Shown piece after piece: positions 2,638-38,264 of a stretch of DNA of 38,264 bases (position 1 is the first letter of the stretch; each line of letters begins with the position of its first letter). Where the stretch lies: positions 1-38,264 of the forward strand of contig CANKYC010000001.1 of NCBI GenBank assembly GCA_947487845.1. Reading direction: 5' to 3'. The notes below the pieces were generated by a model. The model made no database searches. It was not told the DNA's origin and was given only the letters and a program-made list of their open reading frames with translations. The position numbers were made by a program, and so were the translations under genes. Origin of the DNA: Rickettsiales bacterium (GTDB lineage Bacteria > Pseudomonadota > Alphaproteobacteria > Rickettsiales > UBA1997).

Positions 2638-2641
2638 ATTT

Positions 2642-3640: not shown

Positions 3641-3644
3641 GTTT

Positions 3645-10700: not shown

Positions 10701-10772
10701 TGTGGATGCGCGAATTTACTTCGTGCGTAGCAGCTCAATTATTCTAAATTCAAATGAAATTTGAATTTAATT
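10701..10772. repeat. Family-E repeat, copy E1
   Basis: tgtggatgcgcgaatttacttcgtgcgtagcagctcaatt...aaattcaaatgaaatttgaatttaa. It is related to 24114-24272 once the nested family-A copy there is removed. Confidence 0.55.
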
Positions 10773-10779
10773 AAAACCA

Positions 10780-11397: not shown

Positions 11398-11534
11398 GTA
11401 CCTCAAGCCTGATTTCACCCTGAGCTTGTCGAAGGGTGATTCAAGTCCGAAACCTAAAATCACCCTTCGACAAGCTCAGGGTGACATCAGGCTTGAGTGA
11501 CATCAGGCTTGAGTGACATCAGGCTTTGAGGCGA
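11398..11534. repeat. Family-A-related hairpin, copy A2, with an extended stem and a 16-nt tandem repeat at its 3' edge
   Basis: cctcaagcctgatttcaccctgagcttgtcgaagggtgat ... atcacccttcgacaagctcagggtgacatcaggcttgag, followed by gtgacatcaggcttga repeated about 3 times. Confidence 0.75.
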
Positions 11535-17500: not shown

Positions 17501-20500
17501 TGTTTCCAACGTCAGATTGGGCATTGGTTCTTGCTGGCAACGAAGCAATTGTCCAGAATGATAATAATGTTATGCGGGTGATGATGTTAATGGTCCAGAC
17601 TTCATCCCAGCAAATTTTGTAACCAAGTGAAAGTTTAATAACTTCATACATTAACATGTTGAAGAAGGCGAGAGTGGTGAGTAAGAAAATTTGTTGTAGC
17701 GAGAAGCCAATCAACTGCTTTAGCCAATTGTCAAACATTTCCTTGGTCTGATTAAAGAGTGTAAATATGAGGAATATTGGACCTAAAGTGAAGAGGATTG
17801 AGATAAATACCTGCGCGGTTAGATAGAGTAGTACGGCATTTGCAACTGAGTAAACATAAAGCATGAAGCTTTGATAGATGATGATTAAGTAGGCCCAACC
17901 GAAGATGCTGGCAAATAACAAAGCGGAAACTTTTTTCTGAACAGCTTGAGAAAAGAACATGCTGAAAACATTATCGACGCTGCTGAAAAGAACAGATTTA
18001 TCATAATAGTCACTATTGGCTATTGCGTCAGAGACGGCGTGATTACTTGAATCATCAAAGGATGAGGCCATCATGAAGGCGAGGTAGTCGGTACCATTTT
18101 TAAAGAACCTCACTACTAAATTGTTGAACCAGTCCCAACCTGTTTCGCCAATAAAGAGATAGATTACGCCGATCTTGATAATGCGATTAATAATCTCGGA
18201 GTGATTTAATTCACTAGTTCCCATTAGATAGCCAACGCCGTAAAAGCTAAACATCACTACGAAGCACATGGTTACGATGGCCTTGAATCTGGCATCAGCA
18301 ATGACCAGTTTATAAACTCTTTCTGCCTGACCAACGCTCGCTTTTTTACAATAATATTGTTTAGCGCAACTATTGCCATCGCTTAAAACGCAGGTGGCGC
18401 CGGTGTTAGATGCGCTTACGGAATATAAAGGATTATTAGTTCTTACGCCATCATTTGAGATAATGCTGCCAGTCGTGCTGCAGTTACGTAATTTTGGACC
18501 ATCCATAACTTCAATTACAGGAGTAATAACTCCGCCAATAATGCTAGAAATACTGCCGCCAGACTCGTTTTTTACTTTAACGTTAACAAAATATGAGCCG
18601 CTATTATTCGCATATTTATTGGCGCAGTAATATTGTTTCGTGCAGGTTTTGGCAGTTAATTCAGAGGCGCTACAAGTTTTATTAGTATTTGGAAGATTTG
18701 AAGCGCACCCGCCAGTAGGTGTCGGATAACCGTCGTTTTCAACGCTAGAAGAATCAGTTTTGCAGCTACTTGGGTTATAAGCTGGATTTGAAAGCTTTCT
18801 GCCATCGGCTGATGTTCCAGTAGCAACAGCTCCGCTAGAGATATTACAATTGGTAACTTCAGGATCCAGAATCTTGAAAGTCAGTCTTAATTTTTGGATT
18901 GAGTTTTCAATAGAACTCTGTTCATTCTTTGATTTTGCTTTGAGGGTAGAGGAAGAAAAATAGTTATCAGTATGGCAGTAAAAATTAGCGCCGGCGACTG
19001 ATGCAACGCCATTATTATTTGCAGTACAGTCTCTGGTAGCTCCGTTAACAACTAAAAGATTATTATTAATGCGTATGATATTGCCATAGCCATCAAATCC
19101 ATAACTTGTTGAAATATCTGGTGGAGTTCCCGCTGGTGTTGTGCTGGTGGGTGGAGTAATCTCAATTAATTTTGGTTGACCATCAAGAGAAATGGGATCG
19201 GAGTTTTTGCAAAGTAAACCGGTATCATTTTCTAAGCATAACCTTCCTTGCAACCATTGACCGTTAGAAAAATCAAGCATCCCAGATAGGCTGATTTTAA
19301 AACCATTGGAGCCAGTATAAGAGCTACCAATTCCAGTATTGTTGGTGTAGGCATCTTTGTCGTTAAAATCAGAACCATCGAGCATAAAAAATCTTAATCT
19401 ACCTTCTGTTCCAAAAGTCAGGGGTTGCTTGAGTTGGAAAATCTTATTATTCCCCTTTGAATCAGTGGTTCCAGAATCAACAAAGTTTTCAAGATTTCCA
19501 TAACTGCCATTAAACGCACCGATTTTGGCAAGACCTTTGGTTATGTTTGGCTTTGCAAGATCTGCGTCAGTATATCCGTTATTAGGAATCAAAGACACTT
19601 TGCTGGTATAATTTTCCAAGTCGTAACATTGAATCATGTCAGATAAAGCAATTTTACCCGATAGACCAGCATTAGTTTTCATCTTCTCCGAGCAGGCAGC
19701 GCAGGTTGCAGAAGTGATAGTAGAAGTGTAGGAATCTGAAGGGCAGGCGGTTGCGGTTGGAGCTATTAATGTGCAGGTTCCTTTTTGATAAAGAGGAGAA
19801 ACGCCGTCAGGGCAAGTTATAGTTGATTGACAGCCGGTAAGCGGACAATAATTAGTTGTAGATACACTATTAGAGCATTCACTAGCATATGCCTTACAAC
19901 CGATTAATGTTCCGCTACTATTATAATCTTGATTGCATGCTGTATTTAAAACATAATCAGTGGCCATTCCTTTGCAAAGCAATGCTGGTCTTGGTTCGAT
20001 CATCATTGCCATTCCAATACCGCATTGGCGGTTTCCAGCGCCTGTCGTCCAGGTTCCATCCCAACTCTTAGGTGAGAAGCGGATTATTTGTCCTTTTCTA
20101 ACAAAAGATAAATTTGACCAACTAGGCGTTGTTGCAGTCGTGATTGATGCGGGTACGTTTAAATTAGCAAGAGGATCTTTGGATGATGAAGGTGTCGTAG
20201 CGAAATTATCATATTCGTAAATGTCATTATTGGCAAAAGTTCCTTCTGGATTCATGATGCGAGCCTGAATTTTGCAAGTACCGCTGCCGTTAAGCATGGT
20301 AAATTTGACAAAACCAGATTTTTGCATTTTTAATTCGTGGTATTTATTAAATTTAACCCCAATGCCTTTGCCACAACTGCCAGAGGTTGTAAGTTTTGCG
20401 ACCGAAAGTTTTTTTCCGCCTTCAAGTGGAATTTCTACATCATCGCTCCAACGGTCATTTGTAACTGCGGTTGAGTAAGGAACTCCGTTACTATCCGTAA

Positions 20501-21749
20501 CTACTAACGTAACATTGCAGGAAGAGTTGCCAGTTAGAGACTTGAATGAAACTCGGAAAGCGGTATCAGAAGTAGGATTTTGAATTTCGACTGAATTAGC
20601 AGAAAGATCTCCAAGAATTTTCCCTGAAGTTGCCGGAGTGGAATCTATGTTGGTGCAGATTCCTGTGGTGGTATTACAACTTGTGCCAGGGAAAAGGTTG
20701 TCGGCGAAAGAAGTTAAATTATCTCCGGTCCAACGAATAATACCGCCATAAGATGTCAGAATATCGGTTGCGGCAGAAGAAGATAAAGGAAATGCAGCTA
20801 TGGCTAAAGAGTTATCAGCCCTAGTATATCCAGCTGGAGAAGCGGTGTAAGGATTGGTGGTTTTATTGTGACAATTTGCTTCGGTTAAATTACTGCCAGT
20901 ATAGTCGCAAGTCCAAGCTAGGGCATCAGGTAAAAGTGGAGCTCCTTTGGTTCCGGATTGTTCGCTTGATTGAGAAACGTCAAAACTATAACCCGCTGGA
21001 TGAGGAATCACGTAAGCAATAATTCTGCGTGCGCCAATATAAGTAGCATTGCTAATTGCTCCGGCTCCAGAACCTAAGGTATTAGTGCCATCATACCACA
21101 AACCGCTAAAATTCAAATTAATAGTTTGTCCGTTTCTGACGTCAAAAAATACATCATTAGATCCACTTGACCAATCTTCTTTTTTTGCATGAGGAATATT
21201 ATTAGTAGCTTGAACGTGGATAGGATTATAATCTATGGTATCACCTAAATGGATTGTTCCCACTGCGCGTATAATGATTTCTGATCCGGGTCTTATTGTA
21301 ACGCCACTATTTGCAGTAGATGATCTTTTGTCAGTTGAAACCCAATTTGGCTCAGGATCTCCAGCTTCGGTGCCAGACAAACAGCTCTGTAAGCAGCCAG
21401 CAACGCATAAATTTTTATAAGTAGCATCGGTAAAACCAGCGCAGCCGCTAGAGCTTGTTCTAGGAAGACCGGCTTCATTATAAATTGTGGTGCTACCACT
21501 AGTAAAACATGTTTTAACTCCGCTACCTTGAGTTGAATCAGTTATTTCTTTCGACCCATCATAAGTACATTTTTCTTGTTGAGAGTTGGCGGAAACTTCG
21601 ATTGTTTGGCTTTCATATTCACCAAAATCATCGGCATCAATACAACCTTGATCAGTGCAGGAAGAAGAAAGGGCAAAAAATAGCAATAAAACTACTGTCT
21701 TGGCGAAGATTTTCTGATGCTGGATTTTTTTAAACCAATTCTTGATCAA
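14577..21749 (-). CDS. Giant (2390-aa) TrbL/VirB6-like membrane protein with a large Cys-rich N-terminal ectodomain and a repetitive hydrophilic C-terminal tail
   Basis: Single uninterrupted ORF with a TTG start and no upstream ATG. The N-terminal signal peptide is KIFAKTVVLLLFFALSSSC. Residues ~1155-1465 are polytopic and include LFTLGPIFLIFTLFNQTKEMFDNWLKQLIGFSLQQIF, which I recognise as VirB6/TrbL-like. The tail is K/A/E/G-rich with 39-aa repeats. Confidence 0.75.
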   Translation of the reverse strand: MIKNWFKKIQHQKIFAKTVVLLLFFALSSSCTDQGCIDADDFGEYESQTIEVSANSQQEKCTYDGSKEITDSTQGSGVKTCFTSGSTTIYNEAGLPRTSSSGCAGFTDATYKNLCVAGCLQSCLSGTEAGDPEPNWVSTDKRSSTANSGVTIRPGSEIIIRAVGTIHLGDTIDYNPIHVQATNNIPHAKKEDWSSGSNDVFFDVRNGQTINLNFSGLWYDGTNTLGSGAGAISNATYIGARRIIAYVIPHPAGYSFDVSQSSEQSGTKGAPLLPDALAWTCDYTGSNLTEANCHNKTTNPYTASPAGYTRADNSLAIAAFPLSSSAATDILTSYGGIIRWTGDNLTSFADNLFPGTSCNTTTGICTNIDSTPATSGKILGDLSANSVEIQNPTSDTAFRVSFKSLTGNSSCNVTLVVTDSNGVPYSTAVTNDRWSDDVEIPLEGGKKLSVAKLTTSGSCGKGIGVKFNKYHELKMQKSGFVKFTMLNGSGTCKIQARIMNPEGTFANNDIYEYDNFATTPSSSKDPLANLNVPASITTATTPSWSNLSFVRKGQIIRFSPKSWDGTWTTGAGNRQCGIGMAMMIEPRPALLCKGMATDYVLNTACNQDYNSSGTLIGCKAYASECSNSVSTTNYCPLTGCQSTITCPDGVSPLYQKGTCTLIAPTATACPSDSYTSTITSATCAACSEKMKTNAGLSGKIALSDMIQCYDLENYTSKVSLIPNNGYTDADLAKPNITKGLAKIGAFNGSYGNLENFVDSGTTDSKGNNKIFQLKQPLTFGTEGRLRFFMLDGSDFNDKDAYTNNTGIGSSYTGSNGFKISLSGMLDFSNGQWLQGRLCLENDTGLLCKNSDPISLDGQPKLIEITPPTSTTPAGTPPDISTSYGFDGYGNIIRINNNLLVVNGATRDCTANNNGVASVAGANFYCHTDNYFSSSTLKAKSKNEQSSIENSIQKLRLTFKILDPEVTNCNISSGAVATGTSADGRKLSNPAYNPSSCKTDSSSVENDGYPTPTGGCASNLPNTNKTCSASELTAKTCTKQYYCANKYANNSGSYFVNVKVKNESGGSISSIIGGVITPVIEVMDGPKLRNCSTTGSIISNDGVRTNNPLYSVSASNTGATCVLSDGNSCAKQYYCKKASVGQAERVYKLVIADARFKAIVTMCFVVMFSFYGVGYLMGTSELNHSEIINRIIKIGVIYLFIGETGWDWFNNLVVRFFKNGTDYLAFMMASSFDDSSNHAVSDAIANSDYYDKSVLFSSVDNVFSMFFSQAVQKKVSALLFASIFGWAYLIIIYQSFMLYVYSVANAVLLYLTAQVFISILFTLGPIFLIFTLFNQTKEMFDNWLKQLIGFSLQQIFLLTTLAFFNMLMYEVIKLSLGYKICWDEVWTINIITRITLLSFWTIASLPARTNAQSDVGNIGNPEGIPSLFSILFIWVIASLMNKFIGFMTDLAASISGGLSASSLGKGIADAAKAVSDIAEKGRKDLWNKTGGQVMQRMDKALFDSGAMADKERNTRKANNAKDFSNKNSMAKAGNKAKNDYIDKNKVALSGMSKEEQRKTLKSVEDAAQTKAGKDLGLNDKDIDRLKNDKGSKFEGDTLGGAAASALKQRFMGGKTLNESLSEKSSDLKLTQAQAAGKGLNAEDAKTLKDNIAKGNVDVEKNTAAKLSDAAKTVSGAAGAVGGAIGGAAKAASETSVGKAIGGAASSVASGAASATSSAATLMSPTAKGAEARNEAGKAISGAISSAATGAKNTASGAATLMSPTAKGAEARNEAGKAIGGAISSAASSAATGAKNAASSAATSAGNAISGAATGAKNTAVGAAKLVSSGEEGAAARKEAGKAIGGAISEVGKAGSGALKMAAGAAKSVGSAISSAPDMAEKMADPKGYEATKQLEKEGAILPMAAGTNFARPDEEKKMIQDRVKQNENEKKSEIKTPDLNTMTGIAKEEAYNKEIAAIDPNARLSEQIGARMSAAAKRYNPMGKQGSEIKKETQKDLLKAAKEQGKEKLAAVKGEKGKLEKGRATAMKDYDKASGEVEAYKNTPEFTERAELVKELTEKAKKTHEGFSTGKRIFDDAARKEDKEARKAQSQLRQMGGAEDPKLAELTKKQNLAGAAVRQIDTKLENIEEKLKATEEFDAAATTASEISEEGQQRADLLDNAELLDNKEEELKKSEETTAGAPTAGASTASVSATSGASKEAPKNKNITNFKDKKTGAVQTIGDKKTAATNKITKAKGEKDSAAQDRPPLMKRIADKLKGKPLDPKEQDYQNAVKEEKEGQKELKDATRLGKAVKKADALSNQARELMKKEDSARDPDPKNQTPHSGAYQRAEKLVKEYDSLESPEDAEKFVQEQEKRSKAIAKASKGLDSPEEFKKFVKRFDGDKDKDEDK

Positions 21750-21847: not shown

Positions 21848-21994
21848 GGTAATTATACCTTGATTCACAAAAAAACTCGATGTCACCCTAAGTTTGTCGA
21901 AGGGTGATTCTAAGATCGAAGCCTTAAATCACCCTTCGACAAGCTCAGGGTGACATCTATTGTGTCTTAGGACAGGCTCTAAGGGATAATCACC
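21848..21994. mobile_element. Family-A element, copy A3, inverted relative to A1
   Basis: ggtaattataccttgattcacaaaaaaactcgatgtcacccta...gggtgacatctattgtgtcttag[gacaggctct]aagggataatcacc is the reverse complement of A1 plus a ~10-11-nt internal duplication. Its flanks (ctaattaa / aattttcg) show no target-site duplication. Confidence 0.8.
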
Positions 21995-24113: not shown

Positions 24114-24272
24114 TGCGGATGCGCGGTTTTATTCCGCGCGTAGCAACTAAGGTGATTATCTCTTAAGACACAATAGATGTCACCCTTCGACAAACTCAGG
24201 GTGACATCGAGTTTTTTTGTGAATCAAGGGATAATTACCGCAACTAAATTTAAACAAAGTTTGAATTTAAAT
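24114..24272. repeat. Family-E repeat, copy E2, interrupted by family-A copy A4
   Basis: tgcggatgcgcggttttattccgcgcgtagcaactaa [A4] gcaactaaatttaaacaaagtttgaatttaa. Compare the uninterrupted E1 at 10701-10772. Confidence 0.55.
24151..24239. mobile_element. Family-A element, copy A4 (one hairpin arm deleted, 89 bp)
   Basis: ggtgattatctcttaagacacaatagatgtcacccttcgacaaactcagggtgacatcgagtttttttgtgaatcaagggataattacc. The 8-bp direct repeat gcaactaa lies at 24143-24150 and 24240-24247. Confidence 0.8.
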
Positions 24273-28167: not shown

Positions 28168-29211
28168 ATGAAATTAAAAATTTTTATAGCCACTTTGTTT
28201 CTTGCATTTTCTGCCAACGCCAACGCCAAAAATATTGCTATTCTAGCAACTGGCGGAACTATTTCGGGTGCTGGTGATTCGGCAATTGGCGCTAAATATT
28301 CTTCTTCAAAAATCGATATTGAACAAATCATAAAATCAATTCCCGGAATCACTAATCTTGCCGATATTAAAGCTGAGCAAATCATGCAAACCGCAAGTCA
28401 AAATATGGACGAAGCGGCGTGGTTAAAAATTGCCAAAAAAGTTAACGAAACTTTGGATCAAAAATTAGTTGATGCAGTTGTTGTAACCCATGGAACTGAC
28501 ACGTTAGAAGAAACTGCTTATTTTTTAAACTTAGTTGTGAAAAGCAAAAAACCGGTAATTATTGTTGGTTCAATGCGTCCATCAACTTCTCTAAGTGCTG
28601 ATGGAGCGCTTAATTTATATAATGCAGTAGCGCTTGCAGCCAATGATGATGCGGCCAAAAAAGGTGTGTTGGTTTTGATGAATGATGAAATTTTTGCGGC
28701 GCGTGATGTGGCAAAAACTCACACTACAAATATTGCATCTTTTAAGGCGTTGAATTCTGGTGCGATTGGAGTTGTACATTACGGCAAAACAAAAATTTAT
28801 TATAGTCCGCTTCGTGTACATACTTCTAAAACTGTTTTTGACGTTAGAAAAATGGAAACTTTGCCGAAAGTCGAAATTGTTTATGCCTACGCGGGCAATA
28901 ATGCAGAAGTTATTGATGGGTTCGTTGCGAATGGTGCAAAAGCTATAATTGTTGCTGGAGTTGGGGATGGAAATATTAATCAGAAAACTGTGGAAAAACT
29001 TAGCGAGGTTGCAAAAAAAGGCGTGATTGTGGTTAGAAGCGCGCATCTTGGAGCGGGATTTGTTGTAAGAAATGCCGAAATTAATGATGATGAGTTGGGG
29101 TTTGTGACGGCGGATAATTTGAGTCCGCAAAAGGCGAGGGTTTTGGCGATGATGGCTTTGACAAAAACGGCGGATGTTAAAGAAATTGAAGAGATGTTTG
29201 GGAGATATTAG
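28168..29211 (+). CDS. ansB: Periplasmic type II L-asparaginase
   Basis: The signal peptide is MKLKIFIATLFLAFSANANA. The motifs ILATGGTISG and VVTHGTDTLEETAYFL are asparaginase signatures 1 and 2. Confidence 0.9.
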   Translation: MKLKIFIATLFLAFSANANAKNIAILATGGTISGAGDSAIGAKYSSSKIDIEQIIKSIPGITNLADIKAEQIMQTASQNMDEAAWLKIAKKVNETLDQKLVDAVVVTHGTDTLEETAYFLNLVVKSKKPVIIVGSMRPSTSLSADGALNLYNAVALAANDDAAKKGVLVLMNDEIFAARDVAKTHTTNIASFKALNSGAIGVVHYGKTKIYYSPLRVHTSKTVFDVRKMETLPKVEIVYAYAGNNAEVIDGFVANGAKAIIVAGVGDGNINQKTVEKLSEVAKKGVIVVRSAHLGAGFVVRNAEINDDELGFVTADNLSPQKARVLAMMALTKTADVKEIEEMFGRY

Positions 29212-29310
29212 GGGCGGAGTTCGAACAAAGTCTGTCGTAACTCCAACGATTTTTCTGTCAATTCGAGAAACAATACTGGCCTGCCAGTCGTAGCTCGTAA
29301 GAGCGAAGAC

Positions 29311-29385
29311 TGGAGCGGGCGAAGGGATTCGAACCCTCGACATCCACCTTGGCAAGGTGGCACTCTACCACTGAGCTACGCCCGC
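29311..29385 (-). tRNA. tRNA-Gly (anticodon GCC), CCA encoded
   Basis: I folded the cloverleaf by hand. The acceptor is GCGGGCG/CGCCCGC, the D arm GCTC-AGTGGTA-GAGT, the anticodon arm CCACC-TTGCCAA-GGTGG, the T arm GAGGG-TTCGAAT-CCCTT, and the 3' end T-CCA. Confidence 0.9.
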
Positions 29386-29583: not shown

Positions 29584-30198
29584 ATGAAAATTTCTCAAAA
29601 AATTCTGCTTGTCCCCGCTATTTTTGCCTTATTTTTTGCAACTTCTTGCGTTGAAACCATAATTGTTGGCGCAACAGCAACGGGAGTTTTAACCGTGCGT
29701 GAAAAAAGTTTCAAAAGCACGCAGAAGGACGTGGTTATTGCCAGCAAGTTAGGTAAGGAATTTATTTCTAAAGGTTTAAAAAATCCGGGAAACTCGATTG
29801 ACATTTCAGTAAATGAAGGTCGCGTTTTATTAACCGGAATCGCCCGCGACCCTGAAAAAGCAAAGCTTGCTAATCAATTGGCCTGGAAAATTGCTAGTGT
29901 AAAAGAAGTGATTGATGAAATTCAAGTTAGCGAAGAAGAAAATTTACGCGCTGCTGATTTTGGTCGCGCTTTTATGGATTATGTAATCACTTTGGAAATT
30001 GAAGCCAAATTGCTTTTCATAAGTGATGTTGCAACCGTGAATTACAAAATTACGACAGTGAATAAAACCGTTTATTTGCTTGGTTTGGCAAATGATAATT
30101 CGGAAATGCAAAAAGTTTTGTCAATGGTTGCAAAAGTTAGTGGTGTCAAAAAAGTTGTTAATCACATAATTTTAGTTGATGACAATAGACGCGGATAA
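29584..30198 (+). CDS. BON-domain lipoprotein (OsmY/DolP-like)
   Basis: 204 aa. The signal peptide ends ..FFATSC. There are two BON-like units, ISVNEGRVLLTGIARDPEKA... and ITTVNKTVYLLGLANDNSEM... Confidence 0.7.
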   Translation: MKISQKILLVPAIFALFFATSCVETIIVGATATGVLTVREKSFKSTQKDVVIASKLGKEFISKGLKNPGNSIDISVNEGRVLLTGIARDPEKAKLANQLAWKIASVKEVIDEIQVSEEENLRAADFGRAFMDYVITLEIEAKLLFISDVATVNYKITTVNKTVYLLGLANDNSEMQKVLSMVAKVSGVKKVVNHIILVDDNRRG

Positions 30199-31621
30199 TA
30201 ACCAAATTGTAACTTTTGGTTGTCGCTTAAATGCTTACGAAAGCGAAGCGATAAAAGAAGCGCTGAAAAAAACTGACCAGAAAAACCTGATTGTTTTTAA
30301 TTCTTGTGCCGTAACAAGTGAAGCGGAGCGCGAGTTGCGCCAAGCTGTGCGCCGCGCCAGAAAAAATAATCCCGAAGCCAAAATTGTTGTAACAGGTTGC
30401 GCCGCGCAAATTGATCCGCAAAAATATGCCAAAATGGCAGAAGTTGATTTAGTTTTGGGCAATGTCGAAAAATCTAATCCGCAAAGTTACGGCTTATTGT
30501 CGCAACAGATTCCAAAACAAGTTCAGGATGACGAAGATTTTGGGAAAATTTCTCTACATCATCATCCTGAACTTGCTTTTGAATCTATTATTGACATCGC
30601 TTCCAAAGATATTTCCCACAAAGATCGCCTATTTTTTGAAAACCGCAACGCCGCCGCAAATTTTTTAACCACCAACGAAACCAGCAAAATCAAGGTTAAC
30701 GACATTATGTCGGTTCGTGAAACTGCGCCGCAATTAGTTTCTTATTTTGAAAATCAAACCCGCGCTTTTTTAGAAATTCAAAATGGCTGTAATCATCGTT
30801 GCACTTTTTGCATAATCCCATTTGGTCGCGGCAATTCACGCTCGGTGGCGTTTGGCGAAATTGTTGAACAGGCAAAAAAAATGGTGGCGTTGGGGCATAA
30901 AGAAATTGTTTTAACGGGAGTTGATATTTCGGGCTATGGCGAAGATTTAGCCGCGCCAATTACGCTTTCAAAAATGATTAAGCGTTTTTTAAAACTAGTT
31001 CCCGAACTGCCGCGCTTGCGCTTATCTTCAATTGACGTTGCCGAAATTGACGAAGAATTTTTCGATATTCTAAAAAACGAACCGCGTTTTATGCCTTATT
31101 TGCATTTAAGCGTGCAATCGGGCGACGACCTGATTTTAAAAAGAATGAAACGCCGCCATTCCTCAAAACAAGTTTTAGATTTTTGCGCCCGCGCCCGTCA
31201 AATAAGGCCAGAAATCACTTTTGGCTGCGACATTATCGCGGGTTTTCCCACCGAAACTGACGAAATGTTTGAAAATTCGGTGCGATTAATCGAACAAGCG
31301 CAAATTATTTTTACCCACATTTTCCCTTATTCAAAACGCGAAGGAACGCCCGCCGCCAAAATGCCGCAAGTTAATGGCGCAATCATCAAAGAACGCGCCA
31401 AAATTTTGCGCGAAGCGGGCGAACGCCAATTAAAAAAATATTTAGCCAATCAAATTGGCAAAGAATTTAAGGTTCTGATTGAAAAAAACTTTTCTGGCAA
31501 AACCGAAAATTTTTTGGATGTGAAAATTTCTGACGGCAAAAATTTAAAATCAGGCGAGATTATGGAAGTTCAGGTTTACGAAACGGAGGGAAATTTTCTT
31601 ATTGCCAAAAATAAGTGGTGA
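30176..31621 (+). CDS. mtaB: tRNA (t6A37) methylthiotransferase MtaB (radical SAM MTTase)
   Basis: It has a UPF0004 N-domain (VTFGCRLNAYESE), the radical-SAM motif QNGCNHRCTFCIIP and a C-terminal TRAM-like domain. A ~60-aa insert carries a family-B palindrome, and the stop codon lies inside family-A copy A5. Confidence 0.85.
   Translation: MMTIDADNNQIVTFGCRLNAYESEAIKEALKKTDQKNLIVFNSCAVTSEAERELRQAVRRARKNNPEAKIVVTGCAAQIDPQKYAKMAEVDLVLGNVEKSNPQSYGLLSQQIPKQVQDDEDFGKISLHHHPELAFESIIDIASKDISHKDRLFFENRNAAANFLTTNETSKIKVNDIMSVRETAPQLVSYFENQTRAFLEIQNGCNHRCTFCIIPFGRGNSRSVAFGEIVEQAKKMVALGHKEIVLTGVDISGYGEDLAAPITLSKMIKRFLKLVPELPRLRLSSIDVAEIDEEFFDILKNEPRFMPYLHLSVQSGDDLILKRMKRRHSSKQVLDFCARARQIRPEITFGCDIIAGFPTETDEMFENSVRLIEQAQIIFTHIFPYSKREGTPAAKMPQVNGAIIKERAKILREAGERQLKKYLANQIGKEFKVLIEKNFSGKTENFLDVKISDGKNLKSGEIMEVQVYETEGNFLIAKNKW
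30519..30573. repeat. Family-B palindrome, copy B3, in-frame inside mtaB
   Basis: caagttcaggatgacg (30519-30534) and catcatcctgaacttg (30558-30573) are reverse complements with one mismatch. They encode QVQDDEDFGKISLHHHPELA. Confidence 0.7.
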
Positions 31622-31905
31622 TTATCCTTTAAAATAAAACCGAAGCCACCTAGAACCCCGAAGCCACAACCCTCAAATCCCGAAGCCACAACAACCCTCA
31701 AATCCCGAAGCCACAACAACCCTGAACCCCGAAGTCACAACAACCCTCAACCCCGAAGTCACAACAACCCTGAACCCCGAAGTCACAACAACCCTCAACC
31801 CCGAAGTCACCCTGAGTTTATCGAAGGGTGATTCAAGCCCGAAACCCTAAATCACCCTTCGATAAACTCAGGGTGACATTCATTATGTTTCAAGGGATAA
31901 TTCAC
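31617..31905. mobile_element. Family-A element, copy A5, expanded internally by a 24-25-nt tandem array
   Basis: It starts ggtgattatcc and ends gggataattcac, with the core hairpin at ~31805-31880. The perfect 8-bp direct repeat aaataagt lies at 31609-31616 and 31906-31913. Confidence 0.8.
31640..31800. repeat. Tandem repeat of ~7 units of ccccgaag(c/t)cacaacaaccct(c/g)aa inside A5
   Basis: Units were read directly. The last unit merges into the gaagtcaccctgag arm of the A5 hairpin. Confidence 0.85.
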
Positions 31906-31917
31906 AAATAAGTGAAA

Positions 31918-32276
31918 GATTTTGAGTTGACGACAAAATTAATCGTCGCGATACTTCCGCGCTGTTTAAAAGCCGCTTTTAATAAAAATAAAATCTATTG
32001 TGAATGCAGCGATTCAGTCGTCTGCGAGAGCAATTCAAAATTTGCCAAATTCGACATAAGTTGAATTTCATTCAAGTATAATCAAAACAATGACAATTTC
32101 GCAAAAATCTTACCTAGAATCTAAATCGTGGGCGTTTGAAGAAGTGCGCCGCATATTGGCACTTTTGGCGAAGTTGTACGTACATCGTTTGTGCGTCACG
32201 CGTTTCAATGTTTGGCGCCCGAAATTCCAACGCGCATGTTTTGCGTTTCTGATGATATTGACGGGCTGCGCAAAGT
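31918..32276 (+). pseudogene. Decayed duplicate of the lysK promoter region and first ~90 codons, with an 82-bp internal deletion and frameshift
   Basis: It aligns base-for-base with 37182-37622, with about 16 substitutions by my count. It lacks 82 bp between two (g/c)cgcat microrepeats. The ORF-track peptide [18 protein letters not shown].. then goes out of frame. Confidence 0.85.
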
Positions 32277-32416
32277 AGTTAAAAAATTTGCAAGTAATTT
32301 ACTTGCGCGCTGAAGCAATTCAAAATTTACTAAATTCAGACGAAGTTTTAATTTGATAAACGTTGTAAGATTTACAGCCTCAAGGTTTAATAAAATACTT
32401 TTGCAAGTAAAAATGC

Positions 32417-33343
32417 TCAAGTTTTAAGCGGTTTTGGTAATATCCAACTCTTAAAATCTTCAATTTTTTGCAAATGAGATTTTTGCTTGGGACTTATCAA
32501 ATAATAGCTGTAACCACTTTTAAAACTGGCGGCAAAAACTTTTATTAAACTGCCATTTTCTAATTCATTCTCAATTAAAAAATCTGGTATCAGGGCAATT
32601 CCAAGGCCATCTTTTGCGGCTTTAAGCAACATAAAAAAATGTTGAAACCCATCATTATAATTTATCTCGGTTTTTTTAACTCGGTGAAATTTAAAATAGT
32701 TTTGCCAAGTGTCGGGGCGCGAAGTGTGAAGCAATAAATTCTGATTTAGCAGGTCGTTGATGCTACGAATTTGATGTTGCGCTTTTAGTTTTGGCGAGCA
32801 AACACAAACAAGCTTTTCCGCCCACATTTTCTCTACGCAAAAATTTTGCCAACTATTCTTTCGGGCAATTCTAATCGAAAAATCCACATCATCCCTCTTG
32901 TCAAAACCAACATGATTATCACCAATTAACATATTTATTTTATAGTAAGGATGCAAAGATTTGAACCCTTCCAACTTTGGCATTAGCCATTGATTGCTTA
33001 AAGATGGCAAAATGCTGATGCTAATCAACTCTTTGCTAGTTTTGTTGGTTAGTTTTGTGGTTGCTTGTTCAACAATTTTTAAAGCCGCATCAATTGCCTC
33101 CAAATATTTTTCTGCCGGCTTTGTTAAAAGCAAACTTTGATGTTTGCGTTCAAACAAATTTAAGCCCAAATAATTTTCCAAAATTGCAATCTGTTTGCTA
33201 ATTGCTCCTTGAGTGACATTCAGCTCCAAAGCCGCTTTGGTAAAGCTTTGATGCTTTGCCGCCGAAGCAAAGGCACGCAGCGAATTTAGAGGTGGAAGTT
33301 TTGTTGTCATAAATTTTGCCAATGAGTTTTTCTCATACGTCAA
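32417..33343 (-). CDS. LysR-family transcriptional regulator (GcvA/AmpR-like subgroup)
   Basis: LPPLNSLRAFASAAKHQSFTKAALELNVTQGAISKQIAILENYLGLNLFER is a wHTH, followed by a LysR substrate-binding domain. It is divergent from the next gene. The start could be the internal ATG at 33310. Confidence 0.85.
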   Translation of the reverse strand: MTYEKNSLAKFMTTKLPPLNSLRAFASAAKHQSFTKAALELNVTQGAISKQIAILENYLGLNLFERKHQSLLLTKPAEKYLEAIDAALKIVEQATTKLTNKTSKELISISILPSLSNQWLMPKLEGFKSLHPYYKINMLIGDNHVGFDKRDDVDFSIRIARKNSWQNFCVEKMWAEKLVCVCSPKLKAQHQIRSINDLLNQNLLLHTSRPDTWQNYFKFHRVKKTEINYNDGFQHFFMLLKAAKDGLGIALIPDFLIENELENGSLIKVFAASFKSGYSYYLISPKQKSHLQKIEDFKSWILPKPLKT

Positions 33344-33427
33344 GTAAAATTACTAGTTTGTCAACACAAAATAAATTGCACTTTTTGCCAGTCGTTGTTT
33401 TCAACAAATCAATTTTTTAATTATTTT

Positions 33428-34432
33428 ATGACTTCTAATTCATTTAAGATTATCGATCCATCCGAAATCAAAACCGCTCACCAAAGAATATCTCCCTACA
33501 TTCACAGAACTCCGCTGCTTTCTTCTCAAATTCTTAACGATTTTTTGGGTCATGAAATAGTTTTTAAAGCTGAATGTTTGCAAAAAATCGGAGCTTTTAA
33601 AATTCGCGGAGCCTTGAACACTTTGCTAGAGCTTAAAGAGAAAAATTCTTTACCAGAAAGTGTTGTGGCATTTAGTTCTGGAAATCACGCTCAAGCCGTT
33701 GCGGTGGCAGGCAAAATGCTTAACGTAAAAACAACAATCGTTTTACCTTTATTCACCTCATCGGTGAAGCAACAAGCGGCAATTTATTATGGTGCAAAAG
33801 TGATTAACACTTCCACCAGAAAAGAAGCTGAAGAAAAAGCTGCCGAAATTGCCGCCAAAGGATCTTTTTTTATTCATTCCTTTGATAATGACGGAGTAAT
33901 TGTCGGGCAAGGAACTTCCTGCTATGAAGCCTTGCAAGATGGCGCAAATCCTGACTCAATTTTCGCCACTTGTGGCGGCGGCGGATGGGTTTCTGGAACT
34001 TTTCTTGCCAAAGAATTGCTGGCACCAAATGTTTTAGTTTTTGGTGCAGAACCAAAGCAAGCAAATGATGCGTCGCAATCTTATGCAAATAATCGCATCA
34101 TAAAATTTAACGATTCACCGCCAACAATTGCCGATGGCGCCCGCGCTCTGGCTGTTTCAGAGCGAACTTTTCATTACTTAAAACAACTTAACGGTTTTTT
34201 TGAAATTGACGAAGAAGAAATAATTTATTGGACACAATGGTTGATACATCTTTTAAAAATCGCCGTTGAACCAACTTCTGCCGTTGCAATGGCAGCAGCC
34301 TTCCACTGGCTTAAAACCCAAAAAACTAAACAGAAAGTTTTGGTTATGTTGTCGGGTGGAAATATCGCAGCAGAAACCTATCAGAAAATTTGGAGTAAAA
34401 GTTATTTAGAGAAATTGCCTTTTTTGCGATAA
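33428..34432 (+). CDS. PLP-dependent serine/threonine dehydratase / serine racemase family enzyme
   Basis: It has FKAECLQKIGAFKIRGA (PLP-lysine motif), SSGNHAQAVA and a CGGGG glycine loop. The start is chosen at MTSNSFK; the track ORF starts at a TTG at 33395. Confidence 0.8.
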   Translation: MTSNSFKIIDPSEIKTAHQRISPYIHRTPLLSSQILNDFLGHEIVFKAECLQKIGAFKIRGALNTLLELKEKNSLPESVVAFSSGNHAQAVAVAGKMLNVKTTIVLPLFTSSVKQQAAIYYGAKVINTSTRKEAEEKAAEIAAKGSFFIHSFDNDGVIVGQGTSCYEALQDGANPDSIFATCGGGGWVSGTFLAKELLAPNVLVFGAEPKQANDASQSYANNRIIKFNDSPPTIADGARALAVSERTFHYLKQLNGFFEIDEEEIIYWTQWLIHLLKIAVEPTSAVAMAAAFHWLKTQKTKQKVLVMLSGGNIAAETYQKIWSKSYLEKLPFLR

Positions 34433-34458
34433 ATTTTTTTAACAAATGACTGACAAAT

Positions 34459-37065
34459 ATGACAAAAATTGTAATTATCGGTGGCGGAATTGCTGGTTGC
34501 ACAACGGCTTTGGAATTGGCAAAAAATAATCCTGAAGCGCAAATTATAATTCTTGAGCAAGCCCAAGAAATCCTTCAAGGCACCAGCGCCAGAACTCCGG
34601 GAAGAATGGGATTGGGCTATCATTATTTTGATGCCCAAACCGCCAAAACTTACATGCAACACACGATTGGTTTTATGAAAAAATATTCAGATTGTTTTGT
34701 GGGCGAAGAATCAACGCCGCATCTACAAAGTGGCAGATATTTTATTGTTAAAGATTCCATTTTGCCGCCAGATGAAGTTTTGGCGGGCTATGAAAAAATC
34801 TCATCTCATTTCCAAGAAATTTGTGCCAAAGATGAAAGCAACAATATTTTTCAAACCCAGCGTTTGCACGAAATGCTAGATTCTAGCCAGTTTGAAGGCG
34901 GCGTTGATCCAAAAAAAATAGCTTACGCCATTCAAACCAAAGAGCGTTTGCTCGATTGGAAGAAATTTGATTCACGAATCAAAGCAGAATTGGCGCAGCA
35001 CCAAAACATTAAAATCAGAACCAATTTTAAAGTAGATAAAGTTTCTCCTCGCCAAGGCGGAGGCTTTATTTTTCCTGATTCAGTTGAGGGCGATTATGTC
35101 GTCAATTGCACTTGGCAAAATATCGAACAGCTAAATCAAAAACTTGGTTTGGGCGACGCGCATTTCAAAAAAGAAAATCCAAAAGAATCAGCCACCGCAA
35201 GGCTAAAATTGTTAGTCGAAGTTGCGCTTTCGCCGCAATTAGAGCGCGCCCATTCAATGTTTTTCTGCTTTGGCGAGCATGCGATGTTTTCAAATTTAGG
35301 AAATGGAATTGGCAGAATCACCTACGCGCCCGTCACAAATTTTGGCACAACAACAGAAAGTGAAATGCCAGCGCAGTGGCAAAAATGGCTTGCAAAAGGT
35401 TTGAGCGCGGAGGAACAACAAAAATACGGACAAAAAATAATTGATGGCGTCAGCCTTTATATTCCAGCAATGGCGGACGCAAAAGTTAATGGCGTGATTG
35501 CCGGAATTGTTAAATCAAAAGGCGAAGTTGAACTTTCAAATCCAAACAGCTCATTTCACAAAAGAGCTTATAGCGGGGTTGAAGAACAGCAAATTGGCTG
35601 GATCGACAACGCCGCGATGAAATTATTTTATTGCCTTGATAACGCCAAAGAAGTTGCGGAGATAATTCAAAATCAAGAGCAAGTTTCGCCAGTTTTGGAC
35701 GCAGCCGCTAAATCAATTGCCAATCAACTGCCTGAAAAAACTAAAAAAATTGCAGAAGATTTTTTTCAATTTCATTTACGCAGAAATTTTTCGTCGAATT
35801 TAATTTTGCCTGAAATTACTCAACAAGCGGAAAAAAAATCCCAACTACAAGATGAAGTAAAAGAATCGAGAATCGACAAATTAAAAAAAACTCCGCCACA
35901 AAAAACCTACCGCTTGATTTGCGTTTTAGATTCTGTGTCGCAGGGCGATGTAACTTTATCAAAGCTCGACGCCTCTCCTGATTACCTTCATATTCACGCG
36001 CTTGATTCAGAAATTTTGCCGTCAATTTCAGAATTTAAAAAAACTCTGCCGCCGCAATCTGAAAATATACCAAACTCAATTGAAGATCCCGACTTTAATA
36101 AAAACCAAAAATCTGTTGCGGATAAGACGATTCATTCGCCTTGGAGCAATTCAAAATTATCCAAATTAGACGATAAGTCGAATTTGATTAATCATAACAC
36201 GCTGACGCAATGGGGAATTCCGCTAGAACTTGCCACTAAAAGCAGAAGCCCAAAAGTTTCTTCGCAAGAAATTAAGCAGCGCGGTCAAATAGGAATTGGC
36301 TCGGCGGCTCGCGGCGACGAGCAAAGCGGAAATTTTATTGGTGGCGGCGAAGGATTTTTATTTGGTTCACAAAATTTTCGCATAACCAAAGGTGGTGAGG
36401 CTTTTTTGGTTGGGGATGAAGAAAATTTTTGGACATTTCAAGTTGCTGATTTTGCGGGTGCCAAAGCCATTTCAGATTCTGTTGGGCAAGAAATTTTGGG
36501 CAGGCAAAAACTTTTGGAAATGCTTAAAGAAAAATCTGGCGGCAAACCTTTTGTCGCGGTTTTTGACGCCGATCTTCACGAAGGATCTTTTGTTCGCAGC
36601 AACGGAATTTTCCCCGAAGATGATGTTGACAGAAAATCAGAATCAACATTCGACGCCAAAAAAGATCAAACACGCGGTGGTCATTTAGTTGGTGGCAGCA
36701 CCAATAAAGGAGATTTGCTTTCTTTGCGCGAGAAGTTTGGCGATGAAGAGCAAGCTGCTGCGAATGATTTTGGACTAACAATTAAAAGTAAAATTTTATT
36801 GAAAGCCGTTGATGAACTTGTAATTGCCAGAAGTGCCAAATCGCAAGCCTTGGAAGTTATCGAAAAAGATGGCTGGAACTTGAAAGAAGAAAATACTCAG
36901 AAAATTTTAGGATTTAAAAGACCTTTTGACGAACCTGCAATTGCCGAAAGCGCCAAAAAAGAATTCTCTTTAGAAAAGCCAAGAACCGAAATTCAAGTGC
37001 GTGAAGCGGAAGCGGCGATTAAAATTACAAATTTTCTGAAAGAAAAATCTGGCAAAATTTATTAA
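34459..37065 (+). CDS. FAD-dependent oxidoreductase (DAO-like N-domain, ~430 aa) fused to a ~430-aa C-terminal region of unknown function
   Basis: The N-terminal sequence KIVIIGGGIAGCTTALELAK...ILEQ is a Rossmann dinucleotide fold. I recognise no motif in residues ~440-868. Confidence 0.7.
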   Translation: MTKIVIIGGGIAGCTTALELAKNNPEAQIIILEQAQEILQGTSARTPGRMGLGYHYFDAQTAKTYMQHTIGFMKKYSDCFVGEESTPHLQSGRYFIVKDSILPPDEVLAGYEKISSHFQEICAKDESNNIFQTQRLHEMLDSSQFEGGVDPKKIAYAIQTKERLLDWKKFDSRIKAELAQHQNIKIRTNFKVDKVSPRQGGGFIFPDSVEGDYVVNCTWQNIEQLNQKLGLGDAHFKKENPKESATARLKLLVEVALSPQLERAHSMFFCFGEHAMFSNLGNGIGRITYAPVTNFGTTTESEMPAQWQKWLAKGLSAEEQQKYGQKIIDGVSLYIPAMADAKVNGVIAGIVKSKGEVELSNPNSSFHKRAYSGVEEQQIGWIDNAAMKLFYCLDNAKEVAEIIQNQEQVSPVLDAAAKSIANQLPEKTKKIAEDFFQFHLRRNFSSNLILPEITQQAEKKSQLQDEVKESRIDKLKKTPPQKTYRLICVLDSVSQGDVTLSKLDASPDYLHIHALDSEILPSISEFKKTLPPQSENIPNSIEDPDFNKNQKSVADKTIHSPWSNSKLSKLDDKSNLINHNTLTQWGIPLELATKSRSPKVSSQEIKQRGQIGIGSAARGDEQSGNFIGGGEGFLFGSQNFRITKGGEAFLVGDEENFWTFQVADFAGAKAISDSVGQEILGRQKLLEMLKEKSGGKPFVAVFDADLHEGSFVRSNGIFPEDDVDRKSESTFDAKKDQTRGGHLVGGSTNKGDLLSLREKFGDEEQAAANDFGLTIKSKILLKAVDELVIARSAKSQALEVIEKDGWNLKEENTQKILGFKRPFDEPAIAESAKKEFSLEKPRTEIQVREAEAAIKITNFLKEKSGKIY

Positions 37066-37353
37066 TCCAAAAGTTTCGAGACAGCTTGAAGAAGAGAAAT
37101 TTTCTTAAATTTATGTTTTGGTATAACCATTTTAATCTAGGTTAGTGCTTTATAATAGCCGAAAAATATGCTTGATAAACTGATTTTGAGTTGACGACAA
37201 AATTAATCGTCGCGATAGTTCTGCGCTGTTCAAAATCGGCTTTTAATAAAAATAAAATCTATTGCGAATGCAGCGATTCAGTCGTCTGCGAGAGCAATTC
37301 AAAATTTGCCAAATTCGACATAAGTTGAATTTCATTCAAGTATAATCAAGACA

Positions 37354-38264
37354 ATGACAATCTCACAAAAATCTTACCTAGAATCTAAATCATGGGCGTT
37401 TGAAGAAGCGCGGCGCATTTATGAAAAAGTTGGAGGTAAAACTCCTGCCAAAGGCTACGTGCTTTTTGAAACGGGTTATGGCCCGTCGGGTTTGCCGCAT
37501 ATTGGCACTTTTGGTGAAGTTGTACGCACTTCGTTTGTGCGTCACGCGTTTCAATGTTTGGCGCCCGAAATTCCAACGCGCATGTTTTGCGTTTCTGATG
37601 ATATTGACGGGTTGCGCAAAGTGCCAGAAAACGTGCCGCAGCAAGATTTGGTGCGGGCGAATTTGGGTCGTCCACTAACTTCGGTTCCTGATCCTTTTGG
37701 AACTCACGAATCTTACGGACACAACATGAACGCCCGTTTGCGCGGTTTTCTCGATGGTTTTGGTTTTGAATATGAATTTATCAGCGCCACTCAAAAATAT
37801 AAATCGGGCGCGTTTGATTCTACAATGTTGCGCGTGCTTGAAAAATATGACGAATTGATGGATTTGATGTTGCCAAGTTTGGGCGTTGAACGCCAAGAAA
37901 CTTACAGCCCGTTCATGCCAATTGATTTAGAAAGCGGAATTGTAATTGATAAAGGTGTAAAAGGCGTAAATAAAGAAAAAGGCACCGTGATTTATGTTGA
38001 TGGAAATGGCGTTGAAAAAGAAGTTTTGGTTGTGGGAGGAAATTGCAAATTACAGTGGAAAATCGACTTCGGCGCGCGCTGGTATTCGCTGGACGTTGAT
38101 TATGAAATTTATGGCAAAGATCACCAGCCAAACGAAAAAATTTATCGCCGCGTTTGCGAAATTTTAGGAGGCACGCCGCCAGTAAATTTCACTTACGAAA
38201 TGTTTTTGAGCGACACTGGCGAAAAAATTTCTAAATCAAAAGGCAACGGAATTTCGGTGGAAGA
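37354..38264 (+). CDS. lysK: Class I lysyl-tRNA synthetase, partial (continues past the window end)
   Basis: My own translation gives [28 protein letters not shown]...[18 protein letters not shown] (HIGH-type motif) ...DYEIYGKDH...KISKSKGNG (KMSKS-type motif). It is absent from the ORF track because no stop lies within the window. Confidence 0.9.
   Translation, partial: MTISQKSYLESKSWAFEEARRIYEKVGGKTPAKGYVLFETGYGPSGLPHIGTFGEVVRTSFVRHAFQCLAPEIPTRMFCVSDDIDGLRKVPENVPQQDLVRANLGRPLTSVPDPFGTHESYGHNMNARLRGFLDGFGFEYEFISATQKYKSGAFDSTMLRVLEKYDELMDLMLPSLGVERQETYSPFMPIDLESGIVIDKGVKGVNKEKGTVIYVDGNGVEKEVLVVGGNCKLQWKIDFGARWYSLDVDYEIYGKDHQPNEKIYRRVCEILGGTPPVNFTYEMFLSDTGEKISKSKGNGISVE

Follow-up and report, generated by a model that had tools for sequence, protein, structure and literature searches.

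A three-gene insert between diverged copies of the lysK 5' region in a Rickettsiales chromosome, probably acquired by homology-guided insertion

Results

Organisation of the mtaB-lysK locus

The DNA stretch analysed in this work (38,264 nt, hereafter the window) comes from a Rickettsiales bacterium and comprises positions 1-38,264 of the forward strand of contig CANKYC010000001.1 (assembly GCA_947487845.1). Between mtaB and lysK (the gene for the class I lysyl-tRNA synthetase, LysRS) it contains an insert of three genes, encoding a LysR-family regulator, a pyridoxal 5'-phosphate (PLP) enzyme and a flavoprotein, and this insert is bracketed by two direct copies of the promoter region and 5' end of lysK (Table 1). 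Domains were assigned with Pfam to all open reading frames (ORFs) of at least 100 aa in the window, and gene identities with NCBIfam. The results agreed with an initial annotation made from the sequence alone, which had recognised a LysR regulator, a divergent gene of the PLP dehydratase family and a flavin adenine dinucleotide (FAD) oxidoreductase. The last had been described as a fusion; its N-terminal DAO-family FAD domain was found, whereas the C-terminal half matched no family.

Table 1. Coordinates of the insert, the duplicated segments and the neighbouring genes, with the repeat copies at two further loci.
Feature	Sequence	Position	Strand	Evidence or remark
mtaB, native left flank	Window	30176-31621	+	NCBIfam TIGR01579, 442 bits; 99.7% identity to L081, 94% to L001
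Native spacer 5' of the displaced lysK copy	Window	31622-31917		24-bp tandem array and palindromic dispersed repeat
Left copy: lysK promoter region and 5' end, apparently native and displaced; pseudogene	Window	31918-32276	+	Promoter-like site 31927-31955, ATG 32090
Insert (cargo), 4905 bp	Window	32277-37181		Not at this locus in 80 species loci or in same-species L155
Intrinsic-terminator-like hairpin and T-run, 3' of the LysR gene	Window	32290-32306	-	13 nt from the left edge of the insert
LysR-family regulator, GcvA/DsdC-like	Window	32417-33343	-	Pfam HTH_1 and LysR_substrate; NCBIfam PRK11139, 295 bits
Fold-type II PLP enzyme, serine racemase / serine-threonine dehydratase-like	Window	33395-34432	+	PF00291; NCBIfam PRK06608, 480 bits (cut-off 380)
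Flavoprotein, 868 aa	Window	34459-37065	+	N-terminal DAO-family FAD domain
Right copy: lysK promoter region and 5' end, apparently the replacement	Window	37182-37622	+	Promoter-like site 37191-37219, ATG 37354
Functional lysK, class I, runs off the window	Window	37354-38264	+	PF01921, 339 bits; NF001968
Methyltransferase repeat copies	L018	7897-8053 and 9481-9637
AlaRS-N gene repeat copies	L056	12981-13074 and 15582-15676

The alignment of the two copies reproduced the initial count to the base. Positions 31918-32154 correspond to 37182-37418 (12 substitutions in 237 nt) and 32148-32276 to 37494-37622 (4 in 129), which makes 16 substitutions per 359 aligned bases, and the BLAST E-values (~1e-105 and ~1e-57) exclude a chance origin of the duplication. 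The homology ends sharply at 31917|31918, 32276|32277, 37181|37182 and 37622|37623. The right copy (441 nt) comprises 172 nt upstream of the lysK ATG, including the promoter-like site TTGACG-17-GATAGT, and 269 nt of coding sequence that continues into the intact gene. The left copy adjoins the 3' flank of mtaB, whose 3' end is of the ancestral type found also in L001 (compared loci are designated by L numbers). It lacks 82 nt and is consequently frameshifted, leaving a residual ORF of 62 aa (32090-32278). The missing 82 bp had been placed between (g/c)cgcat microrepeats, and comparison with native-type alleles (in L002, L081 and L155) extended these to a perfect 14-mer, GCCGCATATTGGCA, repeated 82 nt apart, of which only one survives in the left copy of the window (32148-32161). 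Since the end points of the deletion coincide with this perfect direct repeat in the relatives, it would have arisen by ordinary slippage or recombination between short repeats.

The left edge of the right copy is exactly the base at which conservation starts in L001, L002 and L003, each of which has different DNA upstream. Counting the left and right copies, five upstream contexts meet the conserved lysK block at the same base, 9 nt 5' of the promoter-like -35 hexamer.

Polarity of the two copies

One important question is which of the two copies is native. The left copy showed one mismatch to L002 in 168 nt of the upstream part and none in 129 nt, and none in the same 129 nt to L155. Its private changes are limited to 32001 T and 32145 T (A19V) and the 82-bp deletion, and because it otherwise matches these relatives the left copy appears to be the native allele. 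This fits the initial suggestion of a displaced original 5' end that decays, as does the loss of 82 bp with the frameshift.

The right copy of the window carries about 21 derived differences absent from every other sampled allele, all within 37218-37612. When the window was compared with L155 over 37344-38264, all 16 mismatches fell in 37350-37612 and none after. The downstream part of lysK has one mismatch in 638 nt to L081 and none to L155, and the crossover to native lysK is located at or after 37530. As judged from these alignments, the foreign tract (37218-37612) is coextensive with the duplicated segment (37182-37622). Such a match is what a carried replacement fragment predicts, whereas an unrelated later import would not be expected to fit so closely. 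The functional lysK thus appears to be chimeric, with about 86 foreign codons at the start and a native remainder. In the coding part the copies show nine differences, eight of them synonymous, so they would have diverged as functional genes in different lineages and not by decay of a duplicate formed in situ. No close match to the foreign lysK tract was found among 150 loci.

The right copies of L081 and L085 are partly of the native type, which may reflect later recombination with native alleles or strain mixing in the assemblies. Gene conversion between the copies was also considered for these mosaics and is not relied on; metagenome strain mixing could give the same picture.

The locus in relatives and in independent assemblies

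Relatives were scanned using one genome per species, which gave 80 loci from lake Rickettsiales metagenome-assembled genomes (MAGs); all sequences compared in this work are MAG or metagenome assemblies. The order BON-mtaB-lysK is widespread across these species loci. None of the 80 has the three cargo genes near lysK and none has a second lysK 5' fragment, which indicates that the duplication is specific to this lineage; the three-gene insert is, on this comparison, lineage-specific as well. The mtaB-lysK spacer measures from ~0 to 3.3 kb (~7 kb in the distant L074) and is below 170 bp in many species. The longer spacers hold unrelated cargo, namely a GNAT acetyltransferase, a YhcG/DUF1016 nuclease, a TIR protein, a 1062-aa ankyrin protein and proteins without assigned function, so that the spacer seems to be a small variable islet, or hot spot, across the clade.

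The same-species locus L155 (BON protein identical; 99.4-99.6% identity to L085) is also free of the cassette. There, mtaB is followed by the gene of a 587-aa OLD-family AAA_15 ATPase and then by lysK.

The same arrangement with the same junctions was found in at least four independent assemblies: L081/L150 (GCA_965110865.1), L151/L154 (ERZ27280204), L085 (ERZ19566880) and L086 (Logan ERR11475795). L081/L150 is 98.7% identical to the window over 13.9 kb; L151/L154 shows the left copy and the cargo, and L086 the cargo and the right copy. The window, L081, L151 and L085 share an identical left junction, and the window, L081, L085 and L086 an identical right one. The left copy is itself identical across the window, L081 and L151, including the 82-bp deletion. 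L085 has lost ~445 bp, with most of the left copy, on a scaffold that contains Ns; the last 20 nt of the copy and the identical cargo junction are kept. It would descend from the same event by a derived deletion, or else represent an assembly collapse. With these 20 nt taken into account, no relative was found to carry the three genes between mtaB and lysK without any duplicated lysK fragment.

Some details of the spacers were recorded in passing. The TIR-domain protein lies at 8633-9343 of L017, and other accessory spacers were seen in L013, L016, L032, L049, L068, L003, L008, L012 and L021. The YhcG/DUF1016 spacer genes encode PDDEXK nucleases, and the spacer cargo is of the defence or accessory type. 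In L155 the ATPase gene (2183-4175) gave the AAA_15 domain and a weak, sub-threshold match to the OLD TOPRIM domain. The last 93 nt of mtaB differ there from those of the window and L001, and the conserved lysK promoter block is wholly missing; at that locus the cargo was exchanged with replacement of both flanking gene ends, and no orphan fragment is left.

The cassette at a second locus

The cassette was also found elsewhere, with the same kind of bracket. The 90%-identity cluster of the flavoprotein has nine members, several of which are found at another locus (L087-L090; L113 and L087 are one contig). The order there is RecJ, an AAA_16 ATPase, a 46-aa aldehyde dehydrogenase fragment, LysR, PLP enzyme, flavoprotein and, on the opposite strand, an aldehyde dehydrogenase of 481 aa. 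The cargo is 96.7% identical to that of the window over 4393 nt without gaps. It is flanked by a 167-bp direct repeat (82.6% identity) that corresponds to the last 167 nt of the aldehyde dehydrogenase gene.

A metagenome scan with the dehydrogenase identified a close relative, L091, with the empty site (Ank - Aldedh - AAA_16 - RecJ) and an AAA_16 protein 100% identical. Along the repeat, L091 changes its affinity. In the first 60 nt it differs at 2 positions from the intact-gene copy and at 17 from the fragment copy, and in the middle ~60 nt (positions 61-120) at 0 and 2, respectively. In the last 47 nt the mismatches are 11 and 1, and in the 60-nt downstream flank 46 and 0. The near-identical stretch common to the three sequences extends for ~75-85 nt and encodes the conserved PFGG-K-SG-GRE motif, near-identical even between diverged alleles. 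As read from these aligned alleles, the empty site is a hybrid (B-O-B' against B-O-P' and P-O-B'), which we take as decisive and as proof of the footprint of one reciprocal crossover, which fell within the part that encodes this motif. From this pattern it follows that the incoming molecule would have had a diverged dehydrogenase fragment joined to both ends of the cargo, i.e. it would have been circular or circularised. The hybrid character of the empty allele is full at the aldehyde dehydrogenase (L091 against L113) and partial at lysK. No close match to the donor allele of the foreign dehydrogenase fragment was found among the 150 loci, and no remnants of the aldehyde dehydrogenase locus, a sign of transfer by imprecise excision, were found at the ends of the window cassette.

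Further loci with the same architecture

Self-comparison of all fetched loci (~1.86 Mb of related sequence) revealed two more gene-end duplications. In L018 the order is IscR, a 3' fragment of a methyltransferase gene (158 bp, 91%), an esterase gene, the intact methyltransferase gene and lysK. L023 and L036 are empty at this site, and L024 has the esterase gene with no detectable fragment. In L056 a 3' fragment (95 bp, 96.8%) of a 261-aa gene for the N-terminal part of alanyl-tRNA synthetase (AlaRS-N) is followed by two ORFs and the intact gene. The footprint was thus counted at four loci (lysK, aldehyde dehydrogenase, methyltransferase and AlaRS-N). All four show the direct-repeat bracket with one truncated copy and one copy in an intact gene, and with it the topology of gene-end displacement, in which a new end arrives with cargo and the old end is orphaned. 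The orphan fragment adjoins the native flank in L018 and L087. Another candidate came from the high-GC organism L131, whose aldehyde dehydrogenase fragment is an internal one; it was discarded as a pseudogene fragment unrelated to these cases.

The AlaRS-N gene deserves a comment of its own. A conserved gene of 259-262 aa encoding only the N-terminal part of alanyl-tRNA synthetase (tRNA-synt_2c) lies 3' of lysK throughout the clade (17239-18027 in L085; most of L001-L080), and it could be a split or truncated alaS.

The cargo genes

Apart from 140 nt at its left end and 116 nt at its right, the insert is taken up by the three genes; it was seen in the window, L081/L150, L151/L154, L085 and L086. 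Gene callers place the start of the PLP enzyme 11 codons downstream (334 aa), and its best PDB matches are serine racemases and threonine deaminase (~1e-59). The cargo resembles a regulated module of amino-acid metabolism, in which an enzyme akin to serine racemase/dehydratase is combined with one akin to D-amino-acid oxidase. The G+C content of the cassette (32277-37181) is 0.389 against 0.388 in the flanks, and that of third codon positions 0.331 against 0.326, so a donor from the same group fits. Distant homologues of the cargo occur in bigger accessory clusters of related bacteria: LysR-FAD-DUF2798-PhzF in L082, FAD-aminotransferase/ApbA-PhzF in L083 and FAD-ApbA in L152/L153. Composition and these related clusters together suggest that the donor was a relative and not a distant organism.

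The absence of an integrase or transposase from the insert, already noticed in the initial annotation, extends to the whole 38-kb window in the Pfam search. There are no terminal inverted repeats at 32277 or 37181 as in a transposon or insertion sequence (IS), and the repeat that flanks the insert is 441 nt long and diverged, unlike the short identical target-site duplication of IS elements. Neither does the insert resemble an integron cassette: the window has no integrase and the three genes are divergent and have their own regulator (no search was aimed at attC). The flavoprotein and the LysK segment had no match in IMG/VR, nor the flavoprotein in PLSDB. In an exact-protein look-up, the 481-aa MtaB (TTG start) and the flavoprotein gave no match, and the 480-aa MtaB and the BON protein were matched.

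Several peculiarities were observed in the flavoprotein gene. An in-frame insertion of 126 bp (42 codons; 36068-36193, plus strand) consists of a dispersed repeat of ~95 bp; it is present in L087 and not in the alleles of L082, L083 and L151. Relatives of this repeat lie in the lysK leader (31978-32072 and 37242-37336), at 32311-32360 and 10713-10774, and in L002 (3421-3463 and 4672-4727) inside an ankyrin-protein ORF. It recalls the Rickettsia palindromic elements, yet does not fold into one long hairpin. Near the 3' end, an extra segment of 138 bp (46 aa; 36834-36975) is present with respect to L087, L082 and L083. Over its first 62 nt it is similar (77% identity, E = 5e-7) to the 3' end of an aminotransferase/ApbA fusion gene that stands 3' of the flavoprotein gene in L083, and the segment could be left over from the past rearrangement of a larger cluster. 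In L151 (15887-16796) the flavoprotein gene is of another allele (~83% identity) in its 3' part, starting at window position 36067, and that contig stops 270 nt past the flavoprotein stop codon in unmatched sequence, before any right lysK copy.

Other observations in the window

The spacer between mtaB and the left lysK copy contains a tandem array of a 24-bp unit (CCCGAAGTCACAACAACCCTSAAC; 31652-31820), which is shorter by 97 bp (four units) in L081. It also contains a perfect palindrome with a 28-bp stem (31806-31877; folding energy -52 kcal/mol, z = -13.8). It is one of a dispersed family of intergenic repeats, of which the window holds at least five copies, the others at 1981-2081, 11401-11497, 21878-21965 and 24180-24236; similar palindromes also flank the cargo in L003. 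An Rfam search for a known RNA leader 5' of lysK gave only sub-threshold hairpin matches to the palindrome.

The rest of the window is an ordinary-looking Rickettsiales chromosome with cydB, polA, sodB, hisB, tatC, VirB6/TrbL (2390 aa), argH, ftsW, fpg and queH. The 2390-aa ORF (14577-21749, minus strand), with its TrbL/VirB6 domain in the centre, is of the kind typically seen among the enlarged VirB6 paralogues that belong to the type IV secretion systems of Rickettsiales. The gene order of L150 farther upstream, past argH (PGM, CoaE), differs from that of L151 and the window. The long minus-strand ORFs at 28615-29363 overlap the asparaginase gene and tRNA-Gly (29311-29385), and are almost certainly not genes. 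This tRNA-Gly, 2.5 kb away, is not involved in the insertion.

Discussion

Proposed mechanism

We consider that the insert was acquired by a recent homology-guided insertion of the Campbell type with replacement of the gene end, carried out by host recombination, and assign to this explanation a probability of about 0.6. Integration with a replacement 5' end, or Campbell-type recombination through a lysK fragment, had been proposed in the initial annotation, and the polarity of the copies, the empty sites, the base composition and the second locus all support it. One cassette with two different target fragments, together with the lack of a recombinase gene, speaks for a Campbell-type event and against a dedicated integrase.

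The donor would belong to a related lineage in which the genes for the LysR regulator, the PLP enzyme and the flavoprotein were joined to a 441-bp piece of its own lysK, with the promoter block and the first ~90 codons. In this donor the cargo may have been located directly 5' of the lysK promoter block, in the same hot spot, as is suggested by the coincidence of the left edge of the fragment with the start of conservation in L001, L002 and L003. The piece from the LysR terminator to codon 90 of lysK would have been circularised, the incoming molecule being most likely circular or circularised whatever its route of transfer. One reciprocal crossover with the resident lysK would then have occurred towards the 3' end of the segment held in common, the 81 nt of identity at 37531-37611 being its probable place. 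As a result the cargo would be placed inside lysK, the incoming promoter and 5' end would drive the intact gene, and the resident ones would be stranded beside mtaB. The essential lysK would have stayed functional because the carried fragment held a promoter-like site and the first ~90 codons. The stranded copy would decay afterwards, through the loss of 82 bp by slippage between the 14-nt repeats and, in one assembly, of ~445 bp. With no recombinase encoded by the element, the work would be done by the homologous-recombination machinery of the host, presumably in a RecA-dependent manner.

Several points weigh against this explanation. A circular form or excision product was not seen; a circle would have the same junctions as the integrated form, so contigs cannot reveal it. 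The exact pre-insertion state in the same species (mtaB, spacer, promoter block and lysK) was not found, L155 having other cargo and no promoter block. In metagenome assemblies, strain mixing or path switching between near-identical copies may produce mosaicism or conceal it. For this reason, and since the right copies of L081 and L085 are partly of the native type, the latter with Ns, the foreign tract may really end further downstream on its right. Two targeting fragments on one cassette require at least one extra illegitimate capture event that the model does not cover. Finally, a left edge of the right copy at the exact start of conservation would also fit a site-specific process.

Alternative explanations

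The strongest competitor is homology-facilitated illegitimate recombination (HFIR) of linear DNA, in which a fragment made up of the cargo and the donor's lysK promoter and 5' end would be anchored in lysK by homology on its right side and joined illegitimately on its left to codon 90 of the resident gene, without any circle. There is indeed no homology at the left junction (32276|32277), and the foreign tract ends near the end of the duplication, so that the recipient position and the crossover nearly coincide. The related contig L087 carries dprA. Such recombination has been described in transformable bacteria, and it was put forward to explain the displacement arrays of the type VI secretion system (T6SS) and Rhs (PMC5361080). 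However, the orphan fragment at the second locus is a hybrid, with the 60 nt proximal to the cargo foreign and the distal part native, which a single illegitimate joint cannot yield and a circular permutation can. Furthermore, an intact gene was restored in four cases, which argues for pairing along the carried fragment and not for chance joints. For these reasons the linear route is considered unlikely, although it is to be taken seriously.

A recombinase acting in trans, or one that has been lost, could have integrated the cargo site-specifically, with the duplicated segments as att sites carrying a replacement gene end; the topology is the same as in known islands with a replacement gene end. 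The five upstream contexts that join the conserved lysK block at the same base also speak for it; that boundary, 9 nt 5' of the -35 hexamer, is explicable by selection on lysK expression. Against it, no recombinase gene was found in the insert or the 38 kb, and the insert leaves no space for a remnant. One and the same cassette lies at two unrelated targets (lysK and aldehyde dehydrogenase) and other cargo at two more, which leaves no one fixed attachment site, and no common motif is apparent by eye in the crossover cores and junctions, for which no motif search was made. We regard this possibility as clearly improbable.

An in-situ duplication, by template switching or as a long target duplication, followed by divergence of identical copies, would also leave direct repeats around the insert, and the L081 copies differ little in the coding part. 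Nevertheless, nearly all derived changes are in the functional copy and not in the pseudogene, which has two private changes against about 14 or more, the opposite of what duplication and decay would give; the near-complete synonymy of the coding differences points the same way. The empty allele at the second locus is a two-sided hybrid, impossible by uniform decay, and this origin is very improbable. Least credible of all is a mis-joined or chimeric metagenome contig: only MAG and metagenome contigs are available, short-read assemblers have difficulty with 95%-identical repeats of 360-440 bp and L151 breaks ~270 nt past the flavoprotein gene, before the right lysK copy, but the left and right junctions are identical across assemblies from different samples and assemblers.

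Implications

Through homology-guided insertion with gene-end replacement, a metabolic module of several genes would become available to a small genome of the host-associated type that shows no mobile-element machinery at the site, with borrowed gene-end homology standing in for an integrase. In the process, foreign DNA would take the place of the promoter and the initial ~86 codons of an essential gene, that of an aminoacyl-tRNA synthetase, so that core genes can become chimeric through the acquisition of cargo. The footprint (an orphan gene-end fragment, cargo and an intact gene) is searchable, and a systematic scan could gauge gene gain of this kind in uncultured bacteria. It could also mark short ORFs such as 32090-32278 as relics of displacement and not as genes.

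A broader and more speculative reading, which we put forward tentatively and on which we would not rely, is that freshwater Rickettsiales harbour mobile cassettes devoid of a recombinase. A captured host gene end would serve them as attachment site; they would excise and circularise via the flanking repeats, move between lineages, re-insert by host recombination with a swap of the promoter or terminal codons of the target, and acquire a new target by a new capture. If so, gene-end displacement would be a route by which these reduced genomes gain genes in general, and even the essential gene of an aminoacyl-tRNA synthetase would be within its reach.

Comparison with known systems

For a described natural equivalent, only analogies were found in the literature (HFIR, merodiploids and T6SS displacement). 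Among integrase-mediated elements, e14 and phage 21 in icd and the islands in the 3' ends of tRNA and tmRNA genes carry a replacement gene end. As in the present case, a diverged supplied end keeps the target intact and the displaced native end remains across the insert. The case described here differs in that there is no integrase, the replacement at lysK consists of a promoter and a 5' end, and one cassette occurs at two targets, so that the fragment is no fixed att site.

Insertion-duplication mutagenesis is the laboratory use of a single crossover by a circle carrying a chromosomal fragment. The Campbell-type product is alike in that direct repeats of the target bracket the insert, with one copy truncated and one intact because the fragment includes the end of the gene; in that the empty allele is a hybrid of the two copies, as seen at the aldehyde dehydrogenase; and in the lack of an element-encoded recombinase. 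In contrast, the events at these loci would be natural and recurrent gene gain in uncultured Rickettsiales, the fragments come from diverged lineages (~5% and ~17% different), and a circular form was not observed. Merodiploids also arise by natural transformation (PMC3784515).

Flexible genomic islets offer another parallel, since the cargo of the mtaB-lysK spacer varies among relatives (OLD-family ATPase, TIR protein, YhcG nuclease, GNAT and ankyrin protein). In most of these variants no gene end is duplicated, and ordinary double crossovers in the flanks could account for them, whereas the insert of the window lies inside lysK and carries the duplication.

A further parallel in topology is the C-terminal displacement in Rhs, contact-dependent inhibition (CDI) and T6SS genes, for which a mechanism without integrase and anchored in homology has been proposed (Kirchberger et al. 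2017, PMC5361080); displacement in Rhs/CDI is also treated by Jackson et al. 2009, as cited in PMC5361080. There too, a gene recombines in its conserved part with incoming DNA and receives a new end together with cargo, while its old end is orphaned, with no known integrase. In our analysis this parallel would be a resemblance in mechanism and not membership. The genes displaced here are housekeeping or metabolic (class I LysRS, aldehyde dehydrogenase, methyltransferase and AlaRS-N) and not polymorphic toxins, the new ends are functionally equivalent and not new toxin tips, and the cargo is metabolic and not an immunity gene. Compared with laboratory insertion-duplication, integrase-bearing elements and C-terminal displacement alike, the present case is distinguished in three ways: housekeeping genes are affected, among them a gene for an aminoacyl-tRNA synthetase in its promoter and 5' end, the cargo is metabolic and one cassette is found at two targets.

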